A stretch of 64,000 nt of DNA from Escherichia coli. GTDB taxonomy: Bacteria; Pseudomonadota; Gammaproteobacteria; Enterobacterales; Enterobacteriaceae. Shown piece after piece: positions 29,354 through 34,250 of the stretch. The stretch lies in assembly GCF_003334815.1 (NCBI RefSeq), contig NZ_QOWO01000015.1; one strand, 5' to 3'. Under the pieces are notes generated by a model. It worked only from the letters and a program-made list of their open reading frames with translations, was not told the origin of the DNA and ran no database searches. The position numbers and the translations under genes were made by a program. Numbering within the stretch: the first letter of the stretch is position 1; each line of letters begins with the position of its first letter.

Positions 29354-30151
29354 ATGTTTTTAGTCGACTCACACTGCCATCTCGATGGTCTGGATTATGA
29401 ATCTTTGCATAAGGACGTGGATGACGTTCTGGCGAAAGCCGCCGCACGCGATGTGAAATTTTGTCTGGCAGTCGCCACAACATTACCGGGTTATTTACAT
29501 ATGCGGGATCTGGTAGGCGAACGTGACAACGTCGTATTTTCTTGTGGCGTGCATCCACTCAACCAGAATGATCCCTACGATGTAGAAGATTTACGCCGTC
29601 TGGCGGCAGAAGAGGGTGTTGTAGCGCTGGGTGAAACCGGGCTGGATTATTATTACACGCCGGAAACTAAAGTACGTCAGCAAGAGTCCTTCATCCATCA
29701 TATCCAGATTGGTCGTGAACTGAACAAGCCGGTTATCGTCCATACCCGTGACGCCCGTGCCGATACGCTGGCAATTCTGCGCGAAGAAAAAGTGACGGAT
29801 TGCGGTGGCGTACTACACTGTTTTACAGAGGACAGAGAAACGGCGGGTAAATTACTGGATCTCGGATTTTACATCTCCTTTTCCGGCATTGTGACCTTCC
29901 GTAATGCGGAGCAACTGCGCGATGCTGCGCGTTATGTCCCCCTGGATCGGTTACTGGTGGAAACTGACTCACCTTACCTTGCGCCGGTACCGCATCGAGG
30001 AAAAGAGAATCAACCTGCGATGGTTCGTGACGTTGCAGAATACATGGCTGTGTTGAAAGGTGTTGCCGTTGAAGAACTGGCGCAGGTAACCACCGATAAC
30101 TTCGCCCGTCTGTTTCACATCGACGCTTCCCGCCTTCAATCCATCCGTTGA
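29354..30151 (+). CDS. ycfH: TatD-family metal-dependent DNase YcfH, 265 aa
   Basis: ORF-track frame 29294..30151; ATG 29354 gives [18 protein letters not shown], the TatD HxH motif; 265 aa. Confidence 0.9.
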
Positions 30152-30319
30152 ATGAGTTTTTTTAAAGCTCGTAATTAATGGCTAAAACGAGTAAAGTTCA
30201 CCGCCGAAAATTGGGCGGTGAATAACCACGTTTGAAATATTGTGACATATGTTTTGTCAAAATGTGCAACTTCTCCAATGATCTGAAGTTGAAACGTGAT
30301 AGCCGTCAAACAAATTGGC

Positions 30320-30355
30320 ACTGAATTATTTTACTCTGTGTAATAAATAAAGGGC
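30320..30355. promoter_or_regulatory. ptsG promoter-proximal AT-rich palindrome (candidate Mlc/CRP operator)
   Basis: TTATTT-N13-AAATAA inverted arms at 30326-30331 and 30345-30350 enclosing a TGTGTAAT CRP-like half-site, about 100 nt upstream of ptsG. Confidence 0.4.
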
Positions 30356-30445
30356 GCTTAGATGCCCTGTACACGGCGAGGCTCTCCCCCCTTGCCACGC
30401 GTGAGAACGTAAAAAAAGCACCCATACTCAGGAGCACTCTCAATT

Positions 30446-31879
30446 ATGTTTAAGAATGCATTTGCTAACCTGCAAAAGGTCGGTAAATCGCTGATGCTGC
30501 CGGTATCCGTACTGCCTATCGCAGGTATTCTGCTGGGCGTCGGTTCCGCGAATTTCAGCTGGCTGCCCGCCGTTGTATCGCATGTTATGGCAGAAGCAGG
30601 CGGTTCCGTCTTTGCAAACATGCCACTGATTTTTGCGATCGGTGTCGCCCTCGGCTTTACCAATAACGATGGCGTATCCGCGCTGGCCGCAGTTGTTGCC
30701 TATGGCATCATGGTTAAAACCATGGCCGTGGTTGCGCCACTGGTACTGCATTTACCTGCTGAAGAAATCGCCTCTAAACACCTGGCGGATACTGGCGTAC
30801 TCGGAGGGATTATCTCCGGTGCGATCGCAGCGTACATGTTTAACCGTTTCTACCGTATTAAGCTGCCTGAGTATCTTGGCTTCTTTGCCGGTAAACGCTT
30901 TGTGCCGATCATTTCTGGCCTGGCTGCCATCTTTACTGGCGTTGTGCTGTCCTTCATTTGGCCGCCGATTGGTTCTGCAATCCAGACCTTCTCTCAGTGG
31001 GCTGCTTACCAGAACCCGGTAGTTGCGTTTGGCATTTACGGTTTCATCGAACGTTGCCTGGTACCGTTTGGTCTGCACCACATCTGGAACGTACCTTTCC
31101 AGATGCAGATTGGTGAATACACCAACGCAGCAGGTCAGGTTTTCCACGGCGACATTCCGCGTTATATGGCGGGTGACCCGACTGCGGGTAAACTGTCTGG
31201 TGGCTTCCTGTTCAAAATGTACGGTCTGCCAGCTGCCGCAATTGCTATCTGGCACTCTGCTAAACCAGAAAACCGCGCGAAAGTGGGCGGTATTATGATC
31301 TCCGCGGCGCTGACCTCGTTCCTGACCGGTATCACCGAGCCGATCGAGTTCTCCTTCATGTTCGTTGCGCCGATCCTGTACATCATCCACGCGATTCTGG
31401 CAGGCCTGGCATTCCCAATCTGTATTCTTCTGGGGATGCGTGACGGTACGTCGTTCTCGCACGGTCTGATCGACTTCATCGTTCTGTCTGGTAACAGCAG
31501 CAAACTGTGGCTGTTCCCGATCGTCGGTATCGGTTATGCGATTGTTTACTACACCATCTTCCGCGTGCTGATTAAAGCACTGGATCTGAAAACGCCGGGT
31601 CGTGAAGACGCGACTGAAGATGCAAAAGCGACAGGTACCAGCGAAATGGCACCGGCTCTGGTTGCTGCATTTGGTGGTAAAGAAAACATTACTAACCTCG
31701 ACGCATGTATTACCCGTCTGCGCGTCAGCGTTGCTGATGTGTCTAAAGTGGATCAGGCCGGCCTGAAGAAACTGGGCGCAGCGGGCGTAGTGGTTGCTGG
31801 TTCTGGTGTTCAGGCGATTTTCGGTACTAAATCCGATAACCTGAAAACCGAGATGGATGAGTACATCCGTAACCACTAA
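30446..31879 (+). CDS. ptsG: PTS glucose-specific EIICB component PtsG, 477 aa
   Basis: 477-aa [36 protein letters not shown]; EIIC membrane domain plus C-terminal EIIB with [12 protein letters not shown]. Confidence 0.97.
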
Positions 31880-34128: not shown

Positions 34129-34205
34129 TTGAAATCTCTTGGTTTATGTTGTCGTCAGGCTCATGCCGGAGGAGGGTGATGAGCGATTATATTTAGTGTG
34201 CGAAT

Positions 34206-34250
34206 AATTTTGTTTGTAAATGCAAATGAGAAATATACGCATTCATATTT
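34206..34250 (-). promoter_or_regulatory. Candidate Fur box in the fhuE promoter
   Basis: Tandem GATAAT-like hexamers (GTAAAT GCAAAT GAGAAA) 80-120 nt upstream of the fhuE start; motif match only. Confidence 0.3.

Follow-up and report, generated by a model that had tools for sequence, protein, structure and literature searches.

The spacer upstream of ptsG, the gene of the glucose PTS permease, holds an AT-rich palindrome that has been read as an operator for an Mlc/NagC-type repressor with a CRP half-site enclosed, and a leader in which the sRNA SgrS is expected to pair. The locus thus raises the question of which regulators act at the palindrome, where CRP acts, and what else the spacer and leader contain. 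We addressed it in a window of 64 kb (the whole stretch of DNA analysed, numbered from its first letter), whose source is the E. coli chromosome.

Identity of the locus and species comparison

According to the RefSeq annotation, the ycfH stop codon ends at 30151 and the ptsG ATG lies at 30446, which leaves a ycfH-ptsG spacer of 294 bp (30152-30445), the length that the sequence-only reading had given.

30446-31879, plus strand: ptsG coding sequence, EIICB-Glc, 477 aa (RefSeq annotation)

The annotation of E. coli records that are 100% identical names ptsG as PTS glucose transporter subunit IIBC, and fhuE is annotated as convergent, near ycfH and ptsG. Positions 30140-30460 (321 bp) are 100% identical to the annotated ycfH-ptsG spacers of many complete E. 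coli genomes, and the ptsG control stretch was found in 5425 of 5426 complete E. coli genomes, with at least 99% identity in 5376. The element is almost certainly the well-studied E. coli ptsG P1 promoter-operator and its 5' leader, and as such is already known.

For comparison across species, one genome per species was scanned, yielding 80 ptsG loci that range from Escherichia to Dickeya, Pectobacterium, Yersinia, Serratia, Hafnia, Erwinia and Pantoea. The promoters of 77 species were aligned as an ungapped stack anchored on the palindromic box overlapping P1 (Mlc box 1 below), a procedure whose anchoring pattern fixes positions -11 to -4 and +5 to +11 of the box, leaving only the unfixed positions as independent evidence. 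The resulting stack contains only two conserved islands, Mlc box 1 and GAAACGTGAnnnnnnTCAAACA (30291-30313), and the sequence between and around them varies freely. Two loci carry neither Mlc box and no CRP box: that of Serratia symbiotica (L072, 1170-1503), an endosymbiont that retains just a degenerate Shine-Dalgarno (SD) region (UUGCUCAGGAG), and a second ptsG copy in Rouxiella aceris (L074, 1170-1503).

Transcription start and -10 element of P1

A ptsG::gfp fusion begins at -103 from the ATG (PMC1807950), in agreement with the base numbering used for SgrS pairing, in which the published A82-G89, C85, C87 and G76-A78 match the bases here only if +1 is 30343 (PMC3089445). We therefore placed the start of P1 at this position.

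30343, plus strand: transcription start of ptsG P1, with a 103-nt leader (literature numbering)
30332-30337, plus strand: probable -10 hexamer of P1, TACTCT, within Mlc operator 1 (placed by geometry)

The hexamer TACTCT lies 32 bp downstream of the centre of the CRP-like box described below, and its last T falls 6 nt before +1. Both A30333 and T30337 are invariant in the 77 species, the former being fixed by the search pattern and the latter not. Geometry and conservation indicate that TACTCT is probably the -10 hexamer of P1. A scan with the sigma-70 consensus missed P1, returning a single match at 30254-30282; this is what one expects of a CRP-dependent class II promoter without a -35 element.

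The AT-rich palindrome conforms to the Mlc operator rule

The palindrome TTATTT-N13-AAATAA is present exactly (TTATTTTACTCTGTGTAATAAATAA), as the sole match on both strands of the window and with no match in 100 dinucleotide-preserving shuffles, so that the element first noted from the sequence is real at its reported coordinates and above chance. It spans 96 to 120 nt 5' of the ATG, in keeping with the earlier estimate of about 100 nt, and TGTGTAAT, described as flanked by its arms, is located at 30337-30344, within the spacer and the right arm.

30326-30350, no strand: perfect palindrome TTATTT-N13-AAATAA, dyad 30338 (perfect in 40 of 77 species)
30326-30348, no strand: Mlc operator 1, TTATTTTACTC-T-GTGTAATAAAT, 23-bp quasi-palindrome, dyad 30337 (published rule and conservation)

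The published rule for Mlc/NagC operators describes a 23-bp quasi-palindrome with invariant TT at -6,-5 and AA at +5,+6, AT-rich positions from ±7 to ±11, and at ±11 an A/T for Mlc or a C/G for NagC (Bréchemier-Baey 2015, PMC4288165; PMC1874608). Only one TT-N9-AA register exists in the noted segment, with TT at 30331-32 and AA at 30342-43, and all 10 flank positions of the resulting operator are A/T. This register places the dyad at 30337 rather than at 30338, where the N13 arms had put it; the element itself stands, while its centre of symmetry moves by one base. The palindrome and Mlc operator 1 are a single element with a common left arm, the right arm of the palindrome lying 2 nt further out, and operator 1 spans -17 to +6 of P1. 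Scanning the window for the architecture W5-TT-N9-AA-W5 returned 3 matches against 0.42 expected, 2 of them within the ycfH-ptsG spacer.

Using a loose pattern (TT-N9-AA with A/T at no fewer than 9 of the 10 flank positions), box 1 was found in 77 of the 79 Enterobacterales ptsG loci examined, and it is nearly letter-identical across species (TTATTTTAC.C..[CT]GTAA.AA.T). T occupies both -11 (30326) and +11 (30348) in 77 of 77 species, where the anchoring fixed -11 and limited +11 to A/T. Because of the T at both ±11 positions, we assigned operator 1 to the Mlc type. The sequence-only proposal of an Mlc/NagC-type operator thus fits the published 23-bp rule and is backed by conservation across the Enterobacterales, and on this sequence evidence we regard the AT-rich palindrome as an Mlc-type operator of ptsG.

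Since the two paralogs recognise such similar sites, the box could instead belong to NagC, the ROK-family repressor of the GlcNAc regulon. NagC operators (nagE-nagBACD, galP, chbB) are likewise 23-bp AT-rich quasi-palindromes with TT/AA at ±5,6, the core logo of NagC is practically the same as that of Mlc, and the overexpressed proteins cross-repress (PMC4288165). The two systems differ in their regulons and in their inducing signal, which is GlcNAc-6-P for NagC and sequestration by EIICB-Glc for Mlc. High-affinity NagC sites, however, have C/G at ±11, whereas the ptsG box has T at both positions in 77 species (+11 being restricted to A/T by the pattern). Moreover, at physiological levels NagC leaves Mlc targets unregulated, with linker changes needed for it to repress ptsG (PMC4288165), and the published result is the opposite of ptsG-lacZ derepression in a nagC but not an mlc mutant. 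We thus consider a NagC operator highly improbable here.

The symmetry might also be incidental, the conservation reflecting promoter elements (the -10, the start and an AT-rich discriminator) or sites for Fis, ArcA, SoxS or Cra. The inferred -10 hexamer does coincide with the left half and the middle of the box, and conservation of the left half is partly confounded with that element. Fis, ArcA and Cra have been reported to act at ptsG (PMC8846999; PMC10100716), and ChIP-qPCR in glucose-grown MG1655 found no enrichment of Mlc or Fis there (PMC8846999). Unphosphorylated EIICB-Glc sequesters Mlc (PMC1874608; PMC10100716), and the absence of an Mlc signal on glucose is expected if Mlc is sequestered, yet it lends no positive support to an Mlc operator. 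What argues against incidental symmetry is the right half, GTAAnAAnT (+3 to +11 of the box), which lies at +1 and beyond, where a promoter has no sequence requirements, and is conserved all the same, together with a second box of the same architecture, devoid of P1 promoter function, that is kept 169 bp upstream. In genetic assays ptsG is the reference Mlc target, ptsG-lacZ being the standard, Mlc-repressed reporter (PMC4288165), and overlapping sites for other factors would be compatible with an Mlc operator without replacing it. An explanation by promoter elements or other factors is accordingly very unlikely, and the reading as Mlc operator 1 is retained below.

The probable CRP site of P1 lies upstream of the palindrome

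The second conserved promoter island, GAAACGTGAtagccgTCAAACA at 30291-30313, starts upstream of the segment that had been noted and contains a CRP-like box.

30292-30313, no strand: CRP-cAMP site of P1, core cGTGA-tagccg-TCAaA at 30295-30310 (conservation and geometry)

The centre of this box, 30302.5, corresponds to -40.5, within the class II range (-41.5 ± 1), and its distance from the Mlc dyad is fixed at 34.5 bp in 76 of 77 species. The core cGTGA-N6-TCAaA has 2 mismatches to TGTGA-N6-TCACA; a consensus scan allowing up to 2 mismatches gave 20 matches in the window against 27.6 expected, so that the match alone is not above chance and the assignment rests on conservation and geometry. Kimata in 1997 and Plumbridge in 1998 reportedly located the ptsG CRP site at -40.5, in a class II arrangement. 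CRP activates ptsG (PMC3105977; PMC11588850), and ptsG promoter mutations arise convergently when Δcrp strains evolve (PMC8846999; PMC11588850). Conservation, the distances to +1 and to the Mlc dyad, the CRP dependence of ptsG and the reported position all point to 30292-30313 as the CRP site of P1.

The sequence-only reading had placed a CRP half-site elsewhere, in TGTGTAAT, which would make the palindrome an Mlc operator embedding a CRP half-site, with CRP and Mlc competing on the same 25 bp. TGTGT does match the half-site TGTGA at 4 of 5 positions, and ptsG is indeed CRP-activated (PMC3105977). The N6-spaced partner pentamer, TAAAG, nevertheless agrees with TCACA at only 2 of 5 positions, and the consensus scan of the window found no CRP match with up to 2 mismatches at the position of TGTGTAAT. 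Of the 77 species in the stack, 28 have TGTGT, 28 have TGCGT and 19 have TTCGT; the pentamer thus takes one of the latter two forms in 47 species, with the remainder of the Mlc box unchanged. A CRP site at TGTGTAAT was further rejected on its location, as its centre would lie near -1, a repressing and not an activating position, and the box at 30292-30313 resembles a CRP site more closely, is invariant and stands at the right place. Competition of CRP and Mlc on the palindrome is therefore extremely improbable, and the half-site claim falls: judged from the alignment, TGTGTAAT forms the inner portion of the Mlc half-site on the right.

A weak second CRP-like sequence, TGTGA-catatg-TTTTG, is present in E. 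coli at 30241-30256 (centre near -94.5 from P1) and is unconserved in the cross-species stack.

A second Mlc box is conserved at a fixed distance

The other match to the operator architecture within the spacer lies just past the ycfH stop codon, 169 bp upstream of box 1, and was missed by the sequence-only reading.

30157-30179, no strand: Mlc operator 2, TTTTTTTAAAGCTCGTAATTAAT, dyad 30168, -175 from P1 (second architecture match; conserved)

Box 2 is kept in most ptsG loci; it could be located in 64 species, and in 54 of these its dyad lies 168-169 bp from that of box 1. An upstream Mlc site near -175 was reportedly described by Kimata in 1998, and it is on geometry, conservation and this reported site that we place box 2 at -175. 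The conserved spacing of 168-169 bp points to phasing of the two Mlc boxes or to a loop between them, and they may thus cooperate. Because of this second Mlc-type box, Mlc protection elsewhere in the spacer, which had been put forward as a refutation, would not refute operator 1.

In locus and sequence, the element is identical to E. coli K-12 ptsG P1 and the Mlc operators and class II CRP site described there; both have TT-N9-AA, A/T at ±11 and a pair of boxes whose dyads lie at -6 and -175 relative to +1. That picture is said to go back to Plumbridge (1998) and Kimata (1997 and 1998), with the consensus reportedly set out by Plumbridge in 2001. The sequence-only reading departs from it only in its CRP assignment and in its register, which has N13 arms and a dyad shifted rightwards by 1 bp.

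Two further features were observed in passing. The third W5-TT-N9-AA-W5 match in the 64 kb, at 34187-34209 (TTATATTTAGTGTGCGAATAATT), falls in an AT-rich stretch between genes, some 60 bp upstream of where fhuE translation starts, and may be due to chance. Between the Mlc boxes, a perfect 6-bp hairpin (ACCGCC-GAAAATTG-GGCGGT) occupies 30200-30219, with no T-run after it; we take it to lie near the start of the minor promoter P2, about 141 bp upstream of P1.

Conservation in the leader peaks at the SgrS pairing region

The leader string ...CTCAGGAGCACTCTCAATTATG ends at 30448, the ATG itself occupying 30446-30448, and it had been singled out as the place where SgrS pairs.

30411-30417, plus strand: A7 tract, immediately 5' of the SgrS site (an A-rich run ahead of GCAC is conserved across the alignment)
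30418-30437, plus strand: SgrS pairing region, mRNA +76 to +95 (best duplex and published footprint)

Scanning all 26-nt window pairs of the ptsG leader against MG1655 SgrS, the best duplex joins +76 to +95 with SgrS 168-187, at -27.8 kcal/mol and with 5-8-4 pairs. The energy statistic is modest, since a scan against all 227 nt of SgrS gave -27.8 kcal/mol or better for 3 of 60 shuffled leaders, and full-length RNAduplex of the leader with SgrS gave a meaningless duplex with long loops that was no better than shuffles. The core of the site, AUACUCAG at 30424-30431, overlaps the SD sequence AGGAG at 30430-30434 and is predicted to be 96-99% unpaired. Among 45 species no other part of the leader is as well conserved as the SgrS site, UACUCAGGAG being at least 90% invariant.

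These coordinates agree with published data. The SgrS footprint shows strong protection of A82-G89, flanking protection at G76-A78 and at about 92-95, and protection of SgrS G168-U181, and compensatory mutations pair SgrS G176/G178 with ptsG C87/C85 (PMC3089445). With +1 at 30343, A82-G89 corresponds to 30424-30431, C85 to 30427 and C87 to 30429. The 5-8-4 pattern is itself published (PMC2760817), and with respect to the pairing of Rice & Vanderpool 2011 (PMC3089445) the target bases, the SgrS bases and the 5-8-4 pattern are the same, with no difference. The scan thus recovers the published duplex, and the claim that SgrS pairs at the ptsG leader and ribosome-binding region holds. A second sRNA, AdiZ of Salmonella, uses the same ptsG cytosine, C-19 from the ATG (30427), and has the SgrS seed motif in common; its action on ptsG was demonstrated in Salmonella and Citrobacter (bioRxiv 10.1101/2025.06.06.658255).

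The conserved A7 tract upstream of the site may be an Hfq distal-face site, judging by its sequence and position. The pairing of SgrS with ptsG is also said to have been treated by Vanderpool and Gottesman in 2004 and by Kawamoto in 2006. Leader insertions of 70-123 bp occur between a third small hairpin and the A-tract in L003 (1275-1503), L004, L015, L018, L027 and L045, and the SgrS target is intact downstream of every one of them; the insertion in Citrobacter holds sequence that we take to resemble an ERIC/IRU repeat.

Two covarying hairpins precede the SgrS site

Upstream of the A-tract, the leader is predicted to fold into two hairpins.

30351-30368, plus strand: HP1, +9 to +26, AGGGCG-CUUAGA-UGCCCU (MFE fold and covariation)
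30375-30396, plus strand: HP2, +33 to +54, GGCGAGG-CUCUCCCC-CCUUGCC, with a pyrimidine-rich loop (MFE fold and covariation)

In the RNAalifold consensus, HP1 presents compensatory changes in all 5 of its pairs, with 87.9% of cells paired across 45 species. Taken together, HP1 and HP2 show double changes in all 13 tested pairs in these 45 species, and their covariation score of 0.462 compares with 0.13-0.22 when the partners are slid by 1-3 columns and is reached in 0 of 500 column shuffles.

The same hairpin can be read on the other strand, where AGGGCATCTAAGCGCCCT followed by TTATTTATTA (minus strand, 30368-30341) would be the intrinsic terminator of an antisense transcript and the palindrome its T-tract. 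The hairpin is conserved, and a scan for terminator-like sequences flags the site, with 2 matches against 0.3 expected in shuffles. Set against this, no gene or notable ORF converges from within ptsG, the T-run is broken by A's, and the AT-rich stretch has the Mlc TT-N9-AA architecture. The reverse complement of the supposed terminator is simply HP1 plus the AT-rich operator, with the hairpin at +9 to +26 of the mapped plus-strand transcript, and the G-U versus A-C counts for the hairpin strand (24 vs 17) give the minus strand no advantage. We give an antisense terminator next to no credence, and HP1 is treated here as a hairpin of the ptsG leader.

A search of Rfam gave no match at E <= 1 in 29800-30800, and in the accessible SgrS/ptsG literature we found no description of HP1 or HP2. 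That the two hairpins form an uncharacterised cis-regulatory RNA element is a tentative and rather doubtful proposal, for which the case is mainly on HP2. In 36 of 45 species the HP2 loop contains CUCC, which is complementary to GGAG, the core of the SD; the corresponding loop-SD duplex is weak (-7.5 kcal/mol), and loop-SD pairing is absent from the predicted ensemble. An anti-Shine-Dalgarno function of the HP2 loop is accordingly speculation, and the CUCC(CC) loop could also be a dock for a G-rich sRNA seed or a protein.

A role of the hairpins in 5'-end stability would be a plain guess. The ompA leader carries a 5'-proximal stabilising stem-loop, and HP1 is also a conserved hairpin near an mRNA 5' end, a likeness that amounts to resemblance only; unlike the ompA type, HP1 starts at +9, with 8 unpaired 5' nucleotides before it.

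A model for ptsG control

Combining these elements, CRP-cAMP bound at 30292-30313 (-40.5, the class II position) would activate RNA polymerase at P1, with transcription starting at 30343. Mlc, a dimer-of-dimers repressor, would bind the 23-bp quasi-palindrome at 30326-30348, and may also bind the second box at 30157-30179. Because the probable -10 hexamer lies within box 1, Mlc bound there should exclude RNA polymerase, its site covering both the hexamer and the start point in what would be steric occlusion. During glucose transport, dephosphorylated EIICB-Glc, the product of ptsG, would hold Mlc at the membrane and so free the operator. The 103-nt leader would present two conserved stem-loops, the A-tract and the unstructured stretch GCACCCAUACUCAGGAGCAC, with which nt 168-187 of the Hfq-dependent sRNA SgrS would pair under sugar-phosphate stress; this pairing would occlude the Shine-Dalgarno sequence and lead to RNase E-dependent decay. 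Repression by Mlc and its sequestration, activation by CRP, and the SgrS footprint and compensatory mutations are taken from the literature.

The ptsG control region has been dissected since 1997-2006, and what the present analysis contributes is a corrected CRP assignment, a fixed operator register and the addition of the second Mlc box to the reading of this spacer. The covarying leader hairpin pair is the only possibly new item and, if the proposed role of HP2 is true, it would add a third level of control to those of Mlc/CRP and SgrS. From Escherichia to Dickeya, Yersinia and Erwinia, the Mlc and CRP boxes and the 34.5 bp that separate them show practically no variation. Control of ptsG sets the rate of glucose uptake, and underlies both catabolite repression and the sugar-phosphate stress response.
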